This document shows, in pieces, positions 2 to 20,863 of a stretch of DNA of 64,000 bases. Made by a program: the position numbers and the translations under genes. Each line of letters opens with the position of its first letter. Position 1 is the first letter of the stretch. Under the pieces are notes generated by a model that saw only the letters and a list, made by a program, of their open reading frames with translations, had not been told where the DNA came from and did no database searches. The stretch is from contig JAVQRO010000007.1 of assembly GCA_033582455.1 (NCBI GenBank), positions 12,628 through 76,627 on the forward strand, given 5' to 3'. The DNA comes from Thermomicrobium sp. (GTDB lineage Bacteria > Chloroflexota > Chloroflexia > Thermomicrobiales > Thermomicrobiaceae).

Positions 2-883
2 GTCTTCCCGATCCTGATCGAGTACGTCAAGCGCGCCGCCCGCGGCGAATCGATCGAGCGCGACACCGCCCACGTCCGTGCGGAGCGCGAGCGCATCACG
101 GCCGAATATCGCGCCCTCCTGCCTCGCGACTCCGATCGCCAGGCCTTCGACCAACTCCTCGGACTCGTCCGGCAGGTCTACTACGCTATCGAAGACCACA
201 AGTTCTGGGTCGATCACTGGTTCATGAGCATCTGGTGGAACAAGCTGCGTGAGCTCGGTGCACTCTTCGTCGAACACGGATTTTTCCAGGAGGTCGACGA
301 CCTGTTCTACCTGCACTGGACCGAGGTGAGCCACGCGCTGACCGACCTCCTCTTGGCTTGGTCGATCGGCACCGAGGCTTTCGGGCCCAAGCACTGGCCG
401 ACCGTGGTCGCACGCCGGAAGGAGATACTGGCCAAGCTCCGCGCCTTCAACCCGCCACCAGCGCTCGGCGTGGTACCGGATGTGATCGCCGATCCAGCCA
501 TCGTCATGTTGTGGGGAATCACGCCTGAACGCCTCCGCGCCTGGGTGACGAAGGACGAGGGAAACGTGCTCCGCGGCTTCGCCGCCTCGCCGGGCATCGT
601 CGAGGGGCCGGCCCGCGTGATCTTCGACGTCGCCGAGCTGAAGACGGTCCAGGATGGGGAGATCCTGGTCTGCTCGGTCACCGAACCGAGCTGGGCACCG
701 GTCTTCGCCAAGGTACGCGGGATCGTGACCGATATCGGCGGGGTCATGTCGCACGCGGCGATCGTCGCACGCGAGTACAGCGTACCAGCGGTCCTGGGTA
801 CCGGTATCGCGACCAAACGGATCCAGACGGGTCAACGACTCCGAGTCGACGGCAACGAAGGCACGGTCACGCTCCTCGAGTGA
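2..883 (+). CDS. PEP-utilising enzyme family protein with C-terminal phospho-His swivel domain (5' truncated by window edge)
   Basis: Frame is open from position 2. The C-terminus has GFAASPGIVEGPARV and the phosphocarrier motif TDIGGVMSHAAIVAREY, as in PEP synthase/PPDK/rifampin phosphotransferase/phenylphosphate synthase-type proteins. Confidence 0.85.
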   Translation, partial: VFPILIEYVKRAARGESIERDTAHVRAERERITAEYRALLPRDSDRQAFDQLLGLVRQVYYAIEDHKFWVDHWFMSIWWNKLRELGALFVEHGFFQEVDDLFYLHWTEVSHALTDLLLAWSIGTEAFGPKHWPTVVARRKEILAKLRAFNPPPALGVVPDVIADPAIVMLWGITPERLRAWVTKDEGNVLRGFAASPGIVEGPARVIFDVAELKTVQDGEILVCSVTEPSWAPVFAKVRGIVTDIGGVMSHAAIVAREYSVPAVLGTGIATKRIQTGQRLRVDGNEGTVTLLE

Positions 884-993
884 CTCGGACGACCAGGCCA
901 CGACGAGAGGAACACGCCACGGGTCGGTTCAGAGCAGGCCACGTGGCGATCGCTGATGCGGTACGCTCGAAGTAGGACACGCGGAGGCAGCCG

Positions 994-1554
994 ATGGAAC
1001 TGACGCCCGAGGACGTGCAAGAGATCCTGCGGATTCTCGAGCAGTCGTCGTTCGATGAACTGTATCTCGAGACGCCGCAACTCAAGCTGGTCGTCCGACG
1101 CGGCCCGACCGGGACCGCGATCGCCTCGCCAGTGCCACAGCATCCATTACCGACATCGCCGCTGCCGTCTCAGCCGGCGACGCCGTCGAGTCGAGAAACG
1201 GGAGAGACATCGCTGCAGGCCCCGACGACGACCACCGAGCCAGTGACTCCCGTCTCGACGGCACCCGAAGCAGACGGAACGGTCCCGATCATAGCCCCCC
1301 TCAAGGGCATCTTCTATCGGGCGCCACGCCCCGGCGCCCCGCCCTTCGTGGAAGTCGGGAGCCAGGTACGAGCGGATACCGTCGTCGGTATCATCGAGGT
1401 GATGAAGCTCATGCATTCGGTACTCGCTGGAGTGCACGGCGAGATCGCCGAGGTCTGCGTCGAGAACGGCCAGGCTGTCGACCGTGGGCAGCCGCTCTTC
1501 CGCGTTCGACCGACCGAGGAGCCTGACAGTTCAGCCGCGACGAACGCACCGTGA
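994..1554 (+). CDS. Biotin carboxyl carrier protein (AccB-like)
   Basis: Pro/Thr-rich linker, APLKGIFYRAPRPGAPPFVEVG, biotinyl-Lys motif IIEVMKLM; GGAGG RBS upstream. Confidence 0.9.
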   Translation: MELTPEDVQEILRILEQSSFDELYLETPQLKLVVRRGPTGTAIASPVPQHPLPTSPLPSQPATPSSRETGETSLQAPTTTTEPVTPVSTAPEADGTVPIIAPLKGIFYRAPRPGAPPFVEVGSQVRADTVVGIIEVMKLMHSVLAGVHGEIAEVCVENGQAVDRGQPLFRVRPTEEPDSSAATNAP

Positions 1555-1565
1555 GGAGTCGAGCG

Positions 1566-3101
1566 ATGGCACCGCGCATTCGACTCATCGACGTGACGCT
1601 CCGTGACGGAAACCAAAGCCTGTGGAGCGCGATCGGCATCGATACGCGCACGGTCGTCGAGGTCGCCCCCTGGCTGGATCGTGCAGGGTTCAAGTGCCTC
1701 GATTTCACCACCAGCACGCACATGGCGATCAGCGTGCGCTATCACCGGGAAGATCCCTACGAGAAGATTCGACTCGCCCGTCAACTCATGCCGAACACCC
1801 CGCTCATTTTCATGACCACCGGGATGCGCTTCATCACCTGGGAACCGGCACCGCGCGCCATCATCCGCTTGGGCATGCGCGTCGTCCTACGGCACGGTAT
1901 CCGCCGCATTCAGATCGTCGAGCCCATGAACAATATGGACGCGCTCCTCGAAGCAGCGCGGATCGCCCGGGAAGAAGGCGCGGAGCAGGTCGTCGCCGGA
2001 CTCGTGTACAGCATCAGCCCCGTCCACACCGACGAGTTCTACGTGCGCTGCGCCGAGGAACTCGCCAAAGAGCGTCATCTCATCGACACGGTGTACATCA
2101 AGGATCCGTCCGGTCTTCTAACACCGGAACGGGTGGAGACGATCGTTCCGGCCCTCCGCCGAGCGCTCGGGGACGACATGCCGCTCGAGATCCACTCGCA
2201 CTGCACGATGGGCATGGCTCCGCTCTGCTATCTCCGGGCCGTGCAACTCGGTGTGGAGACAGTGCACACAGCCATCCCGCCGTTGGCCGAGGGGACCTCG
2301 TTGCCGTCGATCTATCGAACCGTTGCCAACCTGCGCGAACTCGGCTTCGAGATCGAAGTCGACCTCGAGCCGCTGGGACGGGTGTCCGAGTATCTCCACC
2401 GCCTGGCACGCCGCAAAGGCTTCCCGATCGGCCGTCCGCTCGAGTACGACATCGCGTACTACCGTCACCAGGTTCCCGGCGGGATGATCACCACCCTGCA
2501 GCGGCACTTGAAGGAGGCAGGGGCCGAACACCGCTTCGAGCAGGTGCTGGAGGAAATCGTGCGGGTGCGGGCGGAGCTCGGGTACCCGATCATGGTCACG
2601 CCGTACTCGCAGCTGGTCGCCACCCAAGCGCTCCTGAACGTCGAGTCGCGCGAGCGCTACGAGAAAGTGCCGGACGAGGTGATCAAGTACGTGCTCGGTC
2701 GCTTCGGTCCGCCTCCCGCACCGATCGATCCCTGGGTCAAGGACCGCGTGCTCTCCTTGCCACGTGCCCGCGAACTCGACGTACCGGCCCCCGAGCCGAC
2801 GCTCGAGGAATTGCGACGCACCTTCGGAGGCAACGTCTCGGACGAGGAACTCCTGCTCCGGTGGGCGCTGCCGGCCGATCAAGTCGATGCAGCGCTGGCG
2901 CGGAAGACGGGGCACCTCTTCCCACGCGGGAACGGCTCGACGCATCCGCTCGCGCAACTCGTCGCGGAAGTCGCGCGCCGCCCCTCGATCTCGTACTTCC
3001 ACTTCGAGAACGACGGGATTCGCCTCGTCCTCCGCCGACAGGGCACGGACAGCCTCAGCGGGAACGCGGCCGAGAGGAGCCGATCGCATGTCGCACCCTG
3101 A
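1566..3101 (+). CDS. Biotin-dependent carboxyltransferase (pyruvate carboxylase subunit B / oxaloacetate decarboxylase alpha-like), no fused biotinyl domain
   Basis: DVTLRDGNQSL, IKDPSG, HSHCT, QVPGGM and MVTPYSQ motifs of the PC/OAD carboxyltransferase TIM barrel. ATG at 1566 after GAGGAG. Confidence 0.88.
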   Translation: MAPRIRLIDVTLRDGNQSLWSAIGIDTRTVVEVAPWLDRAGFKCLDFTTSTHMAISVRYHREDPYEKIRLARQLMPNTPLIFMTTGMRFITWEPAPRAIIRLGMRVVLRHGIRRIQIVEPMNNMDALLEAARIAREEGAEQVVAGLVYSISPVHTDEFYVRCAEELAKERHLIDTVYIKDPSGLLTPERVETIVPALRRALGDDMPLEIHSHCTMGMAPLCYLRAVQLGVETVHTAIPPLAEGTSLPSIYRTVANLRELGFEIEVDLEPLGRVSEYLHRLARRKGFPIGRPLEYDIAYYRHQVPGGMITTLQRHLKEAGAEHRFEQVLEEIVRVRAELGYPIMVTPYSQLVATQALLNVESRERYEKVPDEVIKYVLGRFGPPPAPIDPWVKDRVLSLPRARELDVPAPEPTLEELRRTFGGNVSDEELLLRWALPADQVDAALARKTGHLFPRGNGSTHPLAQLVAEVARRPSISYFHFENDGIRLVLRRQGTDSLSGNAAERSRSHVAP

Positions 3102-3939
3102 CCTGGGAACGATTCGCGCCGTCGTCTTCGACGTCGACGGCACGCTCATCCTCTCCGATGGCCCGGACTGGCGCGGAGCAGTTCCGCTCCCCGGCGCCGT
3201 CGAACTCCTGACATGGCTCGAGCAGTACCAGTATCCGTTCGCGCTTTTCACGAGTGGCAGCACCGAACTGCCCGCGACGTACGCAGCGCGCCTGCGCGCA
3301 GCCGGTCTACCCGTCGAAGACTGGCAGGTCATCACCACCGGCATCACGGCCGCAGAGATCATCGCGACCGAGTATCCAGGACGGACGGTCTACGTCTTGG
3401 GCGAAGAAGGAACCCGCGCCCCCCTCCTCGCGCGGGGAATCCCGGTGGTCGATGGGGAGGCGGGCAAGAATGCTGGTGTCGTCCTGGTTGGATGGAGCCG
3501 CGCGCTGACGTATGATCAACTCGACATCGCGTGTGGAGCGGTCTGGAACGGAGCCGACCTCTTGGTCACGTCGGCTGCTCGTGCATTCGTCTCCAAACGA
3601 GGACTCCGACCGGGATGGTCATGGTCGATCGCGATCGCCATCCAAGAGACGACCGGCAAGAAGCCGCGGGTGGTCGGGAAACCATCGGTCGAGGCACTGC
3701 GCGCGATCGCTCGCCTGCTCGGGCAGGAACTCGAGCACGTCGCCGTCGTGGGTGACGACCCTGACCTCGAGCTTCGGATGGGACGCGATGCTGGCGTTCT
3801 GACGATCCAGGTGCAGACCGGACGCGGCAACGAATCGATCGAGACTCCACTGGTCGGCGACCTCGTCGTCCGCGGTGTCGACGAACTCCTGGCACTCCTG
3901 GAGCGAGCTCAGGCAAAGGAGGGTGCCCTGGGCGAGTGA
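3088..3939 (+). CDS. HAD-superfamily class IIA hydrolase (NagD-like phosphatase)
   Basis: FDVDGT motif I, GKP motif III, VGDD motif IV. Start overlaps the upstream gene. Confidence 0.88.
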   Translation: MSHPDLGTIRAVVFDVDGTLILSDGPDWRGAVPLPGAVELLTWLEQYQYPFALFTSGSTELPATYAARLRAAGLPVEDWQVITTGITAAEIIATEYPGRTVYVLGEEGTRAPLLARGIPVVDGEAGKNAGVVLVGWSRALTYDQLDIACGAVWNGADLLVTSAARAFVSKRGLRPGWSWSIAIAIQETTGKKPRVVGKPSVEALRAIARLLGQELEHVAVVGDDPDLELRMGRDAGVLTIQVQTGRGNESIETPLVGDLVVRGVDELLALLERAQAKEGALGE

Positions 3940-3950
3940 GGAGTCGAACG

Positions 3951-5300
3951 ATGGCTGGACGACGCTATTGGAACGAACCGCTGGAGACGAGCGAGCCTGG
4001 TGCGTTGTGGCAGCTCGAAGACGAACGTCTGCGGTGGCAGCTGCGCTGGGTCTGGGAGCGTTCGCCATTCTACCGACAGAAGTTCGAAGAGGCCGGGATC
4101 GATCCCCTCCGGATCGGACGGGATTCGTTGCACCTGCTGCCCTTCACCGTCAAGGACGAGGTACGTCGCACCCAGCAGGAGTACCCGCCGCTCGGCGGCC
4201 ATGCGTGCGTCCCGCTCGAGCAGGTGGTCCGATTGCACGCGTCGTCCGGGACGACAGGGCAACCGACGCTCGTCGGTCTCACCGAAGCCGACTCCCGAAC
4301 GTGGAACGAAGTCCTCGCTCGCTTCTTCTGGGCCACCGGCGTGCGCCCCGGAACCCGCGTCTGGCTCGCCGTCACGCTGGGCTGGTACATCGCCGGACTG
4401 AGCTTCTACGAGGCGCTCCGGACGATCGGGGCAGCGATCTATCCAGCGGGGACGATGGAAGCCTCGCGTACCTTCAACGTGGTCCGGCGAGCCGGCGTGG
4501 ACTACGTGGTGTCGAGCCCGACGTTCGTCAATTTCTTGACGCACGTGGCGCGCGAACGGCTCGGCATCGATCCGGCCTCGCTCGGTATCAAAGGGATGGC
4601 GCTCGGTGGAGAACCCGGAGCAGGTGTCCCGCAGATCCGTCACCAGATCGAGGAAACCTGGGGCTGCAAGGTCTACGATGCGATGGGCACCGCCGACTTC
4701 GCCCCGATCCTCTGGACGGAATGCGAAGCCCAGGCCGGCATGCATTTCATCGGACAAGGCCTCGTGATCGCGGAGTTCATCGATCCGCAGACCGGTCAGC
4801 CGGTCGAGCCCAGGGAAGGGATGCTCGCCGAACTGGTCTACACCGCCATCCAACGCGAGTGCGTCCCCTTGATCCGTTTTCGGATCGGTGACCTCGTGCG
4901 GATCGAAGGAACGGGACGGTGCGAGTGCGGCCGCACCGGGATCCGGATCCGTTGTGTCGGTCGCATCGATGACATGTTCATCGTCCGCGGCGTCAACGTG
5001 TTCCCGAGTGCAGTCGCCGATGTCATCGCTTCGTTCCGTCCGCGCGTGACCGGAGAGTTCCAGATCCGCTTACCGGCACGGGGCCTCCCGATCGATCCGC
5101 CCATTCCGATCGTCGTCGAACTCGGTCCCGAGCCCGGGGACCTGCTCAAGCTCAAGCGGGAACTCGAAGAGGCGATCCGCGCCCAGCTCATCTTCCGCGC
5201 GAGCGTTCAGCTCGTGCCGAAGGGCGAACTGGCACCGACCGGTGCGATGAAGCGCCAGGTCATCGTCCGCACGGCGATGGAAGCGCTCGAACGCACCTGA
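3951..5300 (+). CDS. Phenylacetate-CoA ligase family (PaaK-like) acyl/aryl-CoA ligase
   Basis: HASSGTTGQP adenylation loop, PLIRFRIGD, GRIDDMFIVRGVNVFPS. Confidence 0.88.
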   Translation: MAGRRYWNEPLETSEPGALWQLEDERLRWQLRWVWERSPFYRQKFEEAGIDPLRIGRDSLHLLPFTVKDEVRRTQQEYPPLGGHACVPLEQVVRLHASSGTTGQPTLVGLTEADSRTWNEVLARFFWATGVRPGTRVWLAVTLGWYIAGLSFYEALRTIGAAIYPAGTMEASRTFNVVRRAGVDYVVSSPTFVNFLTHVARERLGIDPASLGIKGMALGGEPGAGVPQIRHQIEETWGCKVYDAMGTADFAPILWTECEAQAGMHFIGQGLVIAEFIDPQTGQPVEPREGMLAELVYTAIQRECVPLIRFRIGDLVRIEGTGRCECGRTGIRIRCVGRIDDMFIVRGVNVFPSAVADVIASFRPRVTGEFQIRLPARGLPIDPPIPIVVELGPEPGDLLKLKRELEEAIRAQLIFRASVQLVPKGELAPTGAMKRQVIVRTAMEALERT

Positions 5301-5635: not shown

Positions 5636-6604
5636 TCACCCAGTCAATGCTCGCCGGAGCACCGTTAGCACCTCCGCGTTGGCACGTTGGCTCACCCACG
5701 CCGTCGGCGCGAACGCGTCGAAGCCGTGGAATGCCCCTGCGAAGACATGCAGCTCGGTCAGCACGCCTGCCTGCATCAACCGCTGGGCGTACACGATGTC
5801 TTCGTCTCGGAACAGATCCGCTGTGCCCACCAGAATATAGGCCTGCGGCAGGCCCCGCAGGTCCGCTGCGCGGGCCGGCGCGGCGTAGGCGGGCACATCG
5901 GGACTCCCCGGCTCGCGTCCGAGATACGCCCGCCAGCCGAGGAGGTTCCACTCCCGCGTCCAGATCAGTCGGCGATCGGTGATCTCGTAGCTCGAAGGCG
6001 TCTGGTTTCGATCGTCGAGCATCGGGTAGATCAGCAACTGGAAGCGGACCGGTATCTCGCCGCGATCTCGGGCGAGCAGCGCGAGGCCAGCAGCCAGTCC
6101 ACCGCCGGCGCTGGCACCCGCGATCGCGATCCGCCCTGGATCGGCTCCGAGCTCCGTTGCCCGCTCCCAGACCCAGCACAGCGCTGCATAACAGTCCTCG
6201 AGTGGCGCTGGATAAGGGAACTCCGGTGCTAACCGGTAATCGACCGACGCGACCAGCGCGGGCAACGCCCGGGCGAACTCCGCACACTGCGGATCGTTCA
6301 TTTCCGGCGTCCCCATCACGTATCCACCCCCATGAATCCAGAGCAATACCGGCAGCGGACTGGGAACGTCGATCGGGCGATACAGGCGCACGCGCACGAC
6401 CGTTCGGTCGACTCGATTCGGCGCGAACTCGTCCGTTACCGCGACGTCCGCCGGGAGCGGCGGCATGTGGCTCGCCAGTGCTTCGCGCAGGATCGCCATG
6501 CGCTGCCGCGCGAATGGGATATCCCGGAGATCGAGCAAGAGCTCCTCGGGAAACGCTGCCAAGACCGCAGCGAGCTCCGGGTCGAGTCGAGTCAACGCGG
6601 ACAC
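5636..6604 (-). CDS. Alpha/beta hydrolase, HSL-family (family IV) esterase/lipase
   Basis: HGGGY oxyanion motif, VDYRLAPE, GASAGG nucleophile elbow, D(LFRDE) and HGF catalytic motifs. Confidence 0.92.
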   Translation of the reverse strand: MSALTRLDPELAAVLAAFPEELLLDLRDIPFARQRMAILREALASHMPPLPADVAVTDEFAPNRVDRTVVRVRLYRPIDVPSPLPVLLWIHGGGYVMGTPEMNDPQCAEFARALPALVASVDYRLAPEFPYPAPLEDCYAALCWVWERATELGADPGRIAIAGASAGGGLAAGLALLARDRGEIPVRFQLLIYPMLDDRNQTPSSYEITDRRLIWTREWNLLGWRAYLGREPGSPDVPAYAAPARAADLRGLPQAYILVGTADLFRDEDIVYAQRLMQAGVLTELHVFAGAFHGFDAFAPTAWVSQRANAEVLTVLRRALTG

Positions 6605-6837: not shown

Positions 6838-7719
6838 TCATCGCATCGGTGTCTCTTCTGGAACGAACGCCGCCACGATCATGCTGTAGTAACTGGGAGC
6901 CTCGTAGCAGAGCACCTCCCCGCGGAGCGGTACCCGCCGCATCACGCCGGCGAGCATCAGCGTCTGCCAGAGGCCGTCAATGGCAGCGTTCGTGGCTCGC
7001 TCTTCGGGCACGTCGATGAGGCGGCCAGGGTCGTTCGCCGCCAGCGCTTCGACGACCAACCGGTCGACGATCGCCGCATCCGGGTGGAAACCATACGGTC
7101 CATCAGCACGATGCGTATGCGCCCAGTCACAGCTGGCGATGAAGGCGATGCGGCGTCCGTCGCGCTCGGCAGCCTCCGCGACTGCCTCGCCGAACGTGAC
7201 CAGCAGTGCACGCGGCACCCGCCGCGAGGGCGTGACGATGACGACCGGCGGCCCGGCATCTTGCGGTGGGACGGGAGCGAGCACGTCACCGTAGCCGACC
7301 CGGTTGCGCCCATGACCGAGGAACCACAGCGGCGTCATCGTTCCCCAGTCGAGCGGAATCACCGATTGATCCCATCGATTGCCAGCGAAGCCGGCGAGGG
7401 CGACCGGGACTCCCAACTCACGCGCGGCGACTGCGATCGCTTCCGTCGCTCGGCGGTCCAACGGGACGTTCATCTCGATCTGCCGACCGTGCCAGCGCAG
7501 CGTTCCGGCACCACGTGCGGTGGACGCCAGGCAGACCATTCCATCGACCCGGACTCCGTGCGGCGTCGCGATGACCAAGACATCCGGTCGTGCCGCGGAA
7601 CAGCGCTTCCCGAGCTCGACCATCGCGGCACGAGTCGCTAGAGCGCCCTCCGCGTCTTCGGAGAGTTCTGGGATGATCGGAAACCCGTGGGGTGCGACCG
7701 CCGCGAAGACGATTGCCAT
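6838..7719 (-). CDS. LigB/class III extradiol dioxygenase-fold protein
   Basis: AVAPHG, IATPHG, LDWGTMTPL and SCDWAH motifs. ATG at 7719 after GAGGAGG; the ORF-track start (7944) is too long. Confidence 0.7.
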   Translation of the reverse strand: MAIVFAAVAPHGFPIIPELSEDAEGALATRAAMVELGKRCSAARPDVLVIATPHGVRVDGMVCLASTARGAGTLRWHGRQIEMNVPLDRRATEAIAVAARELGVPVALAGFAGNRWDQSVIPLDWGTMTPLWFLGHGRNRVGYGDVLAPVPPQDAGPPVVIVTPSRRVPRALLVTFGEAVAEAAERDGRRIAFIASCDWAHTHRADGPYGFHPDAAIVDRLVVEALAANDPGRLIDVPEERATNAAIDGLWQTLMLAGVMRRVPLRGEVLCYEAPSYYSMIVAAFVPEETPMR

Positions 7720-8021
7720 CGGCGCCTCCTCTCGTCGGCGGTAGTATCGTCGGAGGTCTCCGGCAACGCAACGCGGAGCGAGTGCGACGCGACCAGCGTC
7801 CGACAGCCGAGCGTCGCCAGTGGTGTTTTGCCACGGCGCGGGTCTCCCAGGGCGCGAAGGCTGGCACAATGGCGACGCGGGGCAACGCTCGACGTTCACG
7901 CGGCGCGAGCTTCGACCACGAGCCATCGCCGGTCGGTTACACACCGTTTACACACGCCATCGATACTCGGTTTCGACAAGCGTCTCGCCCGGTCGTGGGC
8001 GAACGACAAGGGGGGGCGGTC

Positions 8022-18570: not shown

Positions 18571-19131
18571 ATGATCGAGACGGGTGATCTGCGCAAGGGA
18601 CTGACGTTGCTCATCGACGGAGAACTGGTACGCGTGTTGGACTACCAGCACGTCAAGATGGGGCGTGGTAGCGCGTTCGTGCGTCTCACCCTCAAGAACC
18701 TGCGCACGGGCGCGACCACGACCACCACCGTCCAAGCTGGCTCCCGGTTCGAACTCGCTCCGCTCGAGCGCCACCGGGTCCAGTTCCTCTACGAGGACAG
18801 CGGCCAGTACCACTTCATGGATACCGAAACGTTCGAACAGTTCGCGGTCGACCGCGAAGCGCTCGGCGACGCAGTCAACTACCTCAAGGAAGGGCTCCAG
18901 CTCGACCTTCTGACCTACGACGGTCAACCGGTCGAGGTCGAGCTACCAGTCACCGTCGACCTACGTGTCGTGGATACCCCGCCGGGCGTGCGCGGCGATA
19001 CGCAGTCGGGGGGTGGCAAACCAGCAACGCTCGAAACCGGTCTCGTCGTGACGGTCCCGTTCTTCGTCGAAGTCGGCGACATCGTCCGTGTCGATACCCG
19101 AACCGGCGAGTACATCGAGCGGGTGAGCTAG
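18571..19131 (+). CDS. efp: Translation elongation factor P
   Basis: [37 protein letters not shown]. Confidence 0.97.
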
Positions 19132-19133
19132 CG

Positions 19134-19610
19134 ATGACCGAATCGTCGCGATCGGAGGCGGTCTCCGTTCCAGACTACGCTGCGTTGACGCGCACGGTCC
19201 GCGAACTCGTCGACGTCATGCGGGCCGCCGGCTTGCACCGACTCGAGGTCTGTCAAGGCGATTTGCGAATCGCACTGGAATCGGCACCGATCGCCGGTCC
19301 CGTCCCGAGTCCCCACCCAGTAGGGAGCGCATCGGTCACCACTGCGCCCGCAGCCGCGGCCGCCGAGCCGCTGCACACGATCGTTGCTCCGATGGTCGGC
19401 ACGTTCTACGCCGCGCCGCGGCCAGGGGCCGACCCATTCGTCCGGATCGGTGATCATGTCGAGCCGGGACAGGTCGTGGCCATCATCGAGGCCATGAAGG
19501 TGATGAACGAAATCGTCGCCGAACGAGCAGGAACGATCGTGGAGATCCTCGTCGAGAACGGACAACCGGTCGAATACGGGCAACCCCTCATGCGGTTGCA
19601 GCCCGATTGA
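19134..19610 (+). CDS. accB: Acetyl-CoA carboxylase biotin carboxyl carrier protein
   Basis: [22 protein letters not shown]; conserved efp-accB order. Confidence 0.93.
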
Positions 19611-19627
19611 CGCGCTGGGGGGGACTG

Positions 19628-20863
19628 GTGCTCGGGCACGAGATCATCGGGGTCATCGAACTGACCAAGCGCATCAAGGACCTGCTCGAAGAGCAGCCCG
19701 AGCTCCAGTTCCTCCGGGTGCGTGGTGAAATCACGAACGCGCGGACGTACGCGAGCGGTCACTGGTACTTCAGTCTCCGCGAAGGAGAAGCATCGCTTCG
19801 CTGTGTCCTCTTCCGCGGCACCGCGCAATGGCTTCCCTATCTTCCACGCGACGGCGACGACGTCGTCGCGACCGGATCGATCAGCGTCTACGAACGTGAC
19901 GGTGTCTACCAACTCTACGTGGAACACCTGGAGCCGCTCGGTGACGGTGCCCTGCGGTTGCAGTTCGAGCGCTTGAAGGAAAAACTCGAGCGCGAGGGAC
20001 TGTTCGATCCGCGCCGCAAGCGTACGCCTCCTCCGCTGCCCCGCTGCATCGCGGTCATCACGTCACCGCACGGTGCGGTGTGGCACGACATCCAGACCGT
20101 TCTCCGCCGTCGGTACCCGTACGCCCATCTCCTCCTCGCGCCGGCGCGGGTCCAAGGCGATGGGGCAGTCGAGTCACTGATCGCTGCCCTCCACACCGTG
20201 CAAGCCGACGGCCGAGCGAACGTGGTCATCCTGGCTCGTGGCGGTGGATCGCTGGAGGACCTTTGGTGCTTCAACGACGAGCGGCTCGCACGCGCCGTCT
20301 TCGGCTGCCACATCCCGGTCGTTTCCGCGATCGGTCATCAGACCGACTGGACGATCTGTGACTACGTCGCCGACGTCCGCGCCCCGACCCCGTCAGCCGC
20401 CGCCGAGATCGTCACGCCGCACGACCGACTGACGCTGCTCGGGTGGCTCCAGGGCTATGCCGCCCGACTCGATGAACTCGTAGTTCGGCACCTGCGCTCC
20501 TCGCGCGAGCGGGTCGAGCAGTTGCAGCAGCGGATCCAACGAGCCGCTCCGCACCATCGTATGGACAACGTGCGGCAGCGGCTCGACCGCTCAGCGTCTC
20601 GACTCGACCAGGCGATGCTCCGTCAGCTCGCTCACGCTCGGGAGCGCGTGCACACCCTCGCGCGCGAACTCGCCTTGTTGAACCCCCGTAGTCCGCTCGC
20701 GCGCGGCTACGTGCTCGCCGAAGATATCACCAGCGGGGAACTCGTCCGATCGGTCGACCACCTGCGGATCGGGCAACGGCTCCGACTCCATTTCAGCGAC
20801 GGAAGCGCAGACACGACGGTCCACGCTGTCCAGCGAGAGAGAACGGGAGGGGGCCATGGTTGA
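19628..20863 (+). CDS. xseA: Exodeoxyribonuclease VII large subunit
   Basis: RVRGEITN, SGHWYFSL, ARGGGSLEDLWCFNDE, SAIGHQTD, RAPTPSAAAE. Confidence 0.95.
   Translation: MLGHEIIGVIELTKRIKDLLEEQPELQFLRVRGEITNARTYASGHWYFSLREGEASLRCVLFRGTAQWLPYLPRDGDDVVATGSISVYERDGVYQLYVEHLEPLGDGALRLQFERLKEKLEREGLFDPRRKRTPPPLPRCIAVITSPHGAVWHDIQTVLRRRYPYAHLLLAPARVQGDGAVESLIAALHTVQADGRANVVILARGGGSLEDLWCFNDERLARAVFGCHIPVVSAIGHQTDWTICDYVADVRAPTPSAAAEIVTPHDRLTLLGWLQGYAARLDELVVRHLRSSRERVEQLQQRIQRAAPHHRMDNVRQRLDRSASRLDQAMLRQLAHARERVHTLARELALLNPRSPLARGYVLAEDITSGELVRSVDHLRIGQRLRLHFSDGSADTTVHAVQRERTGGGHG

Follow-up and report, generated by a model that had tools for sequence, protein, structure and literature searches.

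A five-gene cluster of Thermomicrobium that probably encodes the chromosomal part of an Hpe/Acv-type route for p-hydroxyphenyl methyl ketones

Which compound would be phosphorylated, carboxylated, dephosphorylated and ligated to CoA by the products of five tightly packed genes, all on the + strand, that occupy bases 2-5300 of a 64,000-nucleotide stretch of DNA from Thermomicrobium sp.? This stretch (hereafter the window) corresponds to positions 12628-76627 of contig JAVQRO010000007.1 (C7), one of 64 contigs in an assembly of 2.14 Mb with a completeness of 93% (GCA_033582455.1), and the genes encode the alpha2 subunit of a phosphoenolpyruvate (PEP) synthase-like kinase, a BCCP (biotin carboxyl carrier protein), a stand-alone carboxyltransferase (CT), a HAD phosphatase and a PaaK-type CoA ligase. 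A preliminary description made from the sequence had listed five co-directional genes with these domains, the last four overlapping or translationally coupled, and the Pfam and NCBIfam profiles used for domain assignment of the window genes bear out both coordinates and domains. It had also proposed that the four reactions act in this sequence on an aromatic, heterocyclic or enolisable keto substrate, and this logic agrees with the Hpe/Acv biochemistry of 2022, in which the substrate is an aromatic, enolisable ketone; its view of an uncharacterised route with an unknown substrate is not supported, the logic having been published in that year (PMC9618137; bioRxiv 10.1101/2022.04.28.489975). The locus probably makes up the chromosomal half of a pathway of the Hpe/Acv type, directed at p-hydroxyphenyl methyl ketones, among them 4-hydroxyacetophenone, acetovanillone and perhaps acetosyringone. 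This reading builds on the gene content, the catalytic motifs, conservation and purifying selection, on synteny as a sign of family membership and on where relatives encode the subunits missing from the cluster, and the substrate of the Thermomicrobium copy would be a ketone of this kind.

The pathway is best described in Rhodococcus rhodochrous GD02, where the hpeHICBADEF genes encode a phenylphosphate synthase homologue (HpeHI) that phosphorylates 4-hydroxyacetophenone and acetovanillone, a biotin-dependent enzyme (HpeCBA) that carboxylates the 4-phospho forms only, a NagD-like enzyme (HpeD) that dephosphorylates the carboxylated product, an AcsA-type CoA synthetase (HpeE) and a CouO-type hydrolase (HpeF) (PMC9618137). 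Sphingobium SYK-6 needs its homologous acvABCDEF genes to grow on acetovanillone and acetosyringone; this strain has no HpeE/F and uses VceAB for the later steps, so HpeE/F are not universal in the family (bioRxiv 10.1101/2022.04.28.489975). HpeHI is a His-dependent ATP kinase, of which HpeH alone moves phosphate, slowly, from 4-phosphoacetophenone to acetovanillone, and the dikinase helps to set the specificity of the pathway (PMC12167813). Novosphingobium aromaticivorans, which carries acvCDEF, uses as acetovanillone kinase the UPF0261 protein MarK (PMC12624787).

The gene for alpha2 (HpeH/PpsA-like; PF00391, NF006151) is cut by the edge of the window, which holds its C-terminal 293 codons (2-883, +); the start of the full gene (C7:11696-13510, 604 aa) lies 931 bases ahead of window base 1. 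After a 110-nt gap follows the gene for the 186-aa BCCP (994-1554, +; PF00364; HpeC/AcvC/XccB-like), with a GGAGG 7 nt 5' of its ATG. The CT gene (XccA/HpeA/AcvE-type, with HMGL-like and PYC_OADA domains) extends from 1551 (GTG) or 1566 (ATG) to 3101 (+) and, depending on the start codon, overlaps the BCCP gene by 4 nt or is separated from it by 11 nt. The start of the HAD phosphatase gene (3088-3939, +; HAD-IIA domains, NagD-type, HpeD/AcvF-like) lies over the CT stop in a 14-nt overlap, and the gene for the AMP-forming CoA ligase (3936 (GTG) or 3951 (ATG) to 5300, +; Pfam and NCBIfam) again begins with a 4-nt overlap or an 11-nt gap, depending on its start codon. Purifying selection acts on each of the five, with dN/dS ratios of 0.05-0.18 against same-genus orthologues; these ratios are approximate since dS is near saturation.

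The conservation of this neighbourhood, put forward in the preliminary description as a check, is found in the relatives. The order alpha-BCCP-CT-HAD-PaaK and both flanks are identical in all four same-genus genomes examined and, because of this conservation and the low dN/dS, the five-gene arrangement is beyond chance. Among 61 relatives, the CT occurs in two genera only, this one (8 of 11 genomes) and the neighbouring one (2 of 3). In the neighbouring genus, the five genes are part of a larger cluster: a Sphaerobacter-like genome (G011) and a named Sphaerobacter metagenome-assembled genome (MAG; L038) carry alpha1-beta-alpha2-BCCP-CT-HAD-PaaK-Amidohydro_2, and ahead of alpha1 there is a biotin carboxylase (BC) gene, separated from it by a pair of genes on the opposite strand that have Meth_synt_2 and cyclase domains. 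The terminal Amidohydro_2 gene is a plausible counterpart of HpeF. Three proteins of Sphaerobacter thermophilus (WP_012873266, WP_012873267 and WP_012873268) are listed as kinase components of an hpe-homologous cluster (PMC9618137 supplement), and this listing matches the locus found in G011 and in the Sphaerobacter MAG.

Beyond these relatives, a survey of one genome per species, based on the family patterns RDGNQSLW and (T/S)STHMA, recovered relatives of the CT in at least 587 species genomes. Gene context was counted at the 54 loci with sufficient flanks out of the 80 best loci of the survey, which do not include those of SYK-6, GD02 and Aromatoleum aromaticum EbN1. A HAD gene is near the CT at 50 of the 54 loci and directly adjacent to it at 43, in many phyla, followed in frequency by BCCP (46), alpha (43), BC (41) and beta (36); the full alpha-beta-BCCP-BC-CT-HAD set is found at 26, a UPF0261 gene is the sole kinase candidate at 8, and a PaaK-type ligase is near the CT at 4. 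No BC is nearby at 13 loci, which recur in several phyla, and both BCCP and BC are missing at 7. The order of the homologue clusters, alpha-beta-BCCP-BC-CT-HAD, optionally with Acs and Amidohydro_2 genes at the end, is that of hpeHICBADEF and acvABCDEF. Other contexts are BCCP-BC-CT-HAD-AcsA-UPF0261 in Polaromonas, BCCP-BC-CT-HAD-UPF0261 in Ramlibacter and alpha-beta-CT-HAD in an Armatimonadota/Sysuimicrobium genome. The CT of the window is 44-54% identical to CTs within the canonical alpha-beta-BCCP-BC-CT-HAD clusters (one homologue, 50% identical, is named xccA by its source). With the Sphaerobacter orthologue, which comes from a cluster that the literature counts as homologous to hpe, it shares 77% identity.

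The last two genes of the cluster relate to the known pathway in different ways. The HAD phosphatase has the motifs DVDGT and GDDPD, and its nearest solved structures are several HAD-IIA enzymes of the p-nitrophenyl-phosphatase type; a role as a mere structural partner was rejected in view of the intact catalytic motifs and of the demonstrated phosphatase activity of HpeD and AcvF. The ligase, with the P-loop SSGTTGQP, reaches 243 bits with its best NCBIfam model (cut-off 700) and about 200 bits with the structures of PaaK and of 2-hydroxyisobutyryl-CoA synthetase. It stands at the operon position at which hpe clusters carry the AcsA-type HpeE, and is conserved in Thermomicrobiota and in some clusters of Solirubrobacterales. 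Its substrate would be the beta-keto acid product, the PaaK-type enzyme presumably replacing HpeE non-orthologously.

As for the kinase, the window fragment of alpha2 matches positions 312-604 of NF006151/PRK08296 with 571 bits, and the full-length protein has a PF00391 phospho-His swivel domain at residues 528-598 of 604 and no PPDK_N domain. His562 is intact within GGVMSHAAIVARE and aligns with the motif of HpeH His581, which is essential (PMC12167813). The dN/dS of the gene (0.05-0.08) is as low as that of the CT. In a tree of 59 alpha subunits drawn from CT-family loci, the BCCP-preceding alphas of Thermomicrobium and Sphaerobacter form one clade (support 100), nested in a clade (support 97) with alpha1 of the same taxa and Sysuimicrobium, so that alpha2, 64% identical to alpha1, is a Thermomicrobiota-specific duplicate. 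The alpha of the window is orthologous to alpha2 of the Sphaerobacter-like G011 locus (74% identity). T. roseum has three alpha and two beta homologues and alpha2 is, therefore, without a beta of its own. The two alphas most likely stand for two substrate specificities, since the dikinase is reported to help set the specificity of the pathway. In the present assembly, two further alpha paralogues, about 45% identical, lie at contig ends (C42:3-1950, and C18:1-1041 with C14:39494-40132), and a HAD paralogue (44% identical) lies ahead of the one on C42.

Several points weigh against an Hpe/Acv-type pathway for p-hydroxyphenyl methyl ketones. Literature searches turned up no account of these ketones being used by Thermomicrobium or Sphaerobacter, and the Sphaerobacter kinase components are labelled as of unknown substrate (PMC9618137 supplement). 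In this assembly, nothing convincing was retrieved for a beta subunit (PPDK_N profile search and tblastn with the sequences of relatives) or for a BC (profile search and tblastn with the cluster BC of relatives). The ligase belongs to a family other than that of HpeE, and neither an HpeF/CouO-type hydrolase nor a thiolase was found in the cluster; Amidohydro_2 genes are also absent from it, and elsewhere in the assembly have only matches of 28-29% identity. The membership of the CT in the HpeA/AcvE/XccA family, in turn, is suggested by synteny, by the source name of one homologue and by the literature link via Sphaerobacter.

Some of these points would also suit the same enzyme logic acting on another phenolic substrate, with the diverged alpha2 and the PaaK-type ligase reflecting a different side chain or ring substitution. 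That alpha2 is a separate, lineage-specific paralogue, that the dikinase reportedly sets the specificity of the pathway, that the ligase is not of the HpeE family and that the Sphaerobacter kinases are listed without a known substrate all speak for such a change. By contrast, the CT-HAD core is common to clusters of canonical architecture, alpha2 nests with alphas from the same kind of cluster and not with distant paralogues, and AcvE, XccA and HpeA, mutually 42-55% identical (2022 Hpe/Acv papers), differ among themselves as much as the Thermomicrobium copy differs from them. On balance, a different phenolic substrate appears unlikely. Still less likely is a special role for alpha2, not as a second ATP-dependent kinase subunit but as a beta-independent aryl-phosphate:phenol phosphotransferase that works with the carboxylase, which would move phosphate from the carboxylated product, or from another aryl phosphate, to fresh substrate and so spare ATP; this idea arises because HpeH, on its own, reportedly exchanges phosphate between aryl phosphates and phenols, and alpha2, without its own beta, always lies directly 5' of BCCP-CT-HAD.

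Where, then, would the ATP-using subunits of an Hpe/Acv-type pathway be encoded? The preliminary description had pointed to the upstream contig for a nucleotide-binding subunit, a BC and a transporter or regulator; an ABC peptide transporter is there, and the nucleotide-binding subunit and the BC are absent and, in relatives, encoded on a second replicon. An alpha1-beta pair and a divergent accC-like BC gene lie together on this replicon in all four same-genus genomes checked for them (G001, G004, G005 and G010). In G004, which is Thermomicrobium roseum DSM 5159, they occupy positions 759999-764699 of the megaplasmid NC_011961.1 (917,738 bp), where their annotation goes no further than PEP-utilizing enzyme, PEP/pyruvate-binding protein and accC. 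The best match of the T. roseum beta among solved structures is 9GOJ, the crystal structure of HpeI (250 bits), and the accC-like gene is 64-66% identical to the cluster BC of Sphaerobacter. In the present assembly, C6 and C63 hold the only PPDK_N matches, on C6 a PPDK/PEP-synthase frame of 945 aa and on C63 a fragment of a PPDK, and the best CPSase_L_D2 match is carB, at the start of C6. The charging of biotin by a PEP-synthase-like protein in place of BC was discarded as well, alpha2 being without an ATP-grasp domain and the relatives keeping a dedicated BC.

The absence of beta and BC genes from the cluster in every Thermomicrobium genome examined, and from this assembly altogether, could also mean that the chromosomal cluster is a decaying remnant which has lost both, the pathway being non-working. 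Against this, the five genes are intact, with their motifs kept and under strong purifying selection, and alpha1-beta and a dedicated BC are co-kept on the second replicon in 4/4 same-genus genomes. Moreover, the same-genus relatives measure 2.9-3.1 Mb and each has a chromosomal accC, which is missing too from the 2.14-Mb assembly studied here, and for this reason absence from it says little, and the two subunits most likely belong to unbinned or unassembled DNA. Decay of the pathway is, accordingly, very improbable. Beside alpha1-beta/BC, the stretch at about 751000-765000 of NC_011961.1 holds a three-subunit molybdenum hydroxylase (xanthine dehydrogenase family), an ABC transporter, a small biotinyl-domain protein and a CT_C_D (PxpB-like) gene. 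At about 59000-68500, the T. roseum megaplasmid carries another kinase locus, a distant one, with an alpha-like (27-29% identical) and a beta-like (about 40%) gene, the latter reported to contain one in-frame TGA in all four genomes. Its third gene is UPF0261/MarK-like and shares 39% identity with that of Polaromonas.

The biotin-dependent part of the cluster was compared with ordinary carboxylases and decarboxylases. The BCCP has its biotinyl-Lys138 in EVMKLM, downstream of a Pro/Thr-rich linker, scores 100 bits against TIGR00531 (below the cut-off of 115) and is 39% identical to the BCCP of the Polaromonas cluster; the housekeeping accB is a separate gene (19134-19610) and the cluster BCCP is pathway-specific. 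This accB lies in a housekeeping efp-accB-xseA stretch (window 18571-20863), in which accC is not beside it. The CT, without a fused BCCP, keeps the metal-site residues Asp19, Lys184 and His215-x-His217, and among solved structures it comes closest to a PycB, to OadA and to the transcarboxylase 5S subunit (5KS8, 2NX9 and 1RQB; 171-224 bits). Its scores, however, are under every curated PycB/OadA cut-off (NF006761, 328 vs 402; TIGR01108, 286 vs 756; NF008985, 282 vs 718; NF010644, 279 vs 734), and the signature RDGNQSLW, invariant in the alignment of the CT family, has Asn in place of the His of RD(A/G)HQS in PycB/OadA (5KS8, 2NX9). To judge from its sequence, the CT is not a bona fide PycB/OadA: the scores below cut-off, the Asn for His and the aryl-kinase and HAD partners all point away from it. 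The preliminary description had named a neighbourhood that is not conserved, or a CT that clusters with bona fide PycB, as contradicting its proposal, and on both counts the outcome favours a linked pathway. That BCCP and CT form an ordinary pyruvate carboxylase/oxaloacetate decarboxylase module, with kinase, phosphatase and ligase as unrelated neighbours, is thus hardly credible, as the best structure and NCBIfam matches to PycB, OadA and 5S would suggest it, but the scores, the Asn after RDG, the HAD gene that overlaps the CT gene and follows CT in 43/54 related loci of many phyla, and the lack of any BC, OadB or OadG gene adjoining the CT argue against it.

In the Hpe/Acv-type pathway that we favour, the chemistry of the first three steps would be that reported for homologues. 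Beta, a separate ATP-grasp subunit encoded elsewhere, would charge His562 of alpha2 (and the His of alpha1) from ATP, and alpha would bind the substrate and phosphorylate its phenolic OH; alpha2 presumably shares the megaplasmid beta encoded with alpha1. BCCP (through Lys138), BC and CT would then carboxylate the acetyl methyl of the aryl phosphate to give a 4-phospho-benzoylacetate, with the cluster BCCP charged by the product of the megaplasmid accC-like gene or by that of the housekeeping accC, as we infer. In the third step, the HAD phosphatase would hydrolyse the aryl phosphate and, finally, the PaaK-type ligase would form a beta-ketoacyl-CoA, from which cleavage would yield acetyl-CoA and a 4-hydroxybenzoate.

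The Thermomicrobium cluster is probably a thermophilic, uncharacterised member of the known Hpe/Acv family, with no new kind of chemistry. It differs from the known systems in three ways, the two-replicon split in T. roseum, the extra alpha paralogue and the ligase type. Like the Hpe system of GD02, it has a PpsA-like alpha that carries the catalytic His, a BCCP of its own, a PycB-like CT that stands alone and, directly after the latter, a NagD-type HAD followed by an AMP-forming CoA ligase, all co-directional and with overlapping junctions. By contrast, it has no HpeI and HpeB (in relatives on the other replicon) and no HpeF, its alpha is an additional paralogue, its ligase is PaaK-type instead of AcsA-type, and the host is a thermophile of the Chloroflexota/Thermomicrobiota. 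The acv systems of SYK-6 and N. aromaticivorans have in common with it the module of kinase, BCCP/BC/CT and HAD phosphatase, with the CT-HAD pair as the conserved core, whereas N. aromaticivorans uses MarK in place of the two-component kinase, a UPF0261 architecture not seen in the window cluster. XccABC of A. aromaticum EbN1, the predicted 4-hydroxyacetophenone carboxylase of anaerobic p-ethylphenol degradation, is a homologous biotin carboxylase, likewise made of three parts, and its genes lie in a cluster with homologues of hpeHI (PMC9618137), but that cluster has its own BC, and the anaerobic pathway of which it is part has a thiolase and a ligase of the AcsA type. The PpsABC/PpcABCD (Pps/Ppc) system of Thauera aromatica has a homologous alpha/beta dikinase and the same phosphorylate-then-carboxylate logic; in contrast, its carboxylase is UbiD-type, carboxylation takes place on the ring and the phosphate is released during carboxylation. 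By analogy with the Hpe/Acv enzymes, the cluster described here would instead direct a biotin enzyme to the side-chain methyl and leave removal of the phosphate to a separate HAD, and no UbiD-type carboxylase is found among the domain assignments of the cluster or its flanks. With PycB, OadA and 5S the CT shares the DRE-TIM fold family and the metal ligands (Asp, the carbamylated-Lys position and His-x-His), and differs from them in its genomic partners, which are aryl-kinase and HAD genes.

Upstream of the cluster, the ABC peptide transporter is followed by Cpn60-like, BNR-repeat and QueF-like genes and then by a 450-nt gap before the alpha2 gene, in which there is one sigma-70-like consensus match. 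The three co-directional genes (C7 7085-11246) encode a Cpn60/TCP-1-family protein (577 aa, only 116 bits), a 662-aa BNR/Asp-box repeat protein and a 197-aa QueF-like protein, and stand in the same order directly upstream of the cluster in same-genus genomes. On the other side, an Abhydrolase_3 (hormone-sensitive-lipase type) esterase gene (window 5636-6604, -) and a LigB-family extradiol dioxygenase-like gene (window 6838-7944, -) converge on the cluster; both are kept in the genus and not in Sphaerobacter, and may be aromatic-catabolic neighbours. Elsewhere in the assembly, the second of the two alpha paralogues at contig ends is followed by a DesA/LigM-like aryl O-demethylase gene (C14:38053-39480), whose product scores 579 bits with the syringate (DesA) and 521 with the vanillate (LigM) model, both below the cut-offs. 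At least five such O-demethylase-like paralogues are present in the assembly (C14, C29, C12, C45 and C22) and, with one of them beside an alpha paralogue, their similarity to DesA/LigM fits a catabolism of methoxylated lignin monomers.

Taken as a probable Hpe/Acv-type locus, the cluster extends this pathway for lignin-derived aryl ketones to the thermophilic Thermomicrobiota (Thermomicrobium and Sphaerobacter), which could provide heat-stable kinase, carboxylase and phosphatase for lignin valorisation. Since T. roseum keeps the ATP-using subunits, beta and BC, together on the other replicon, the pathway may be split, and not reduced, in the other members of the family whose clusters appear to be without BC.

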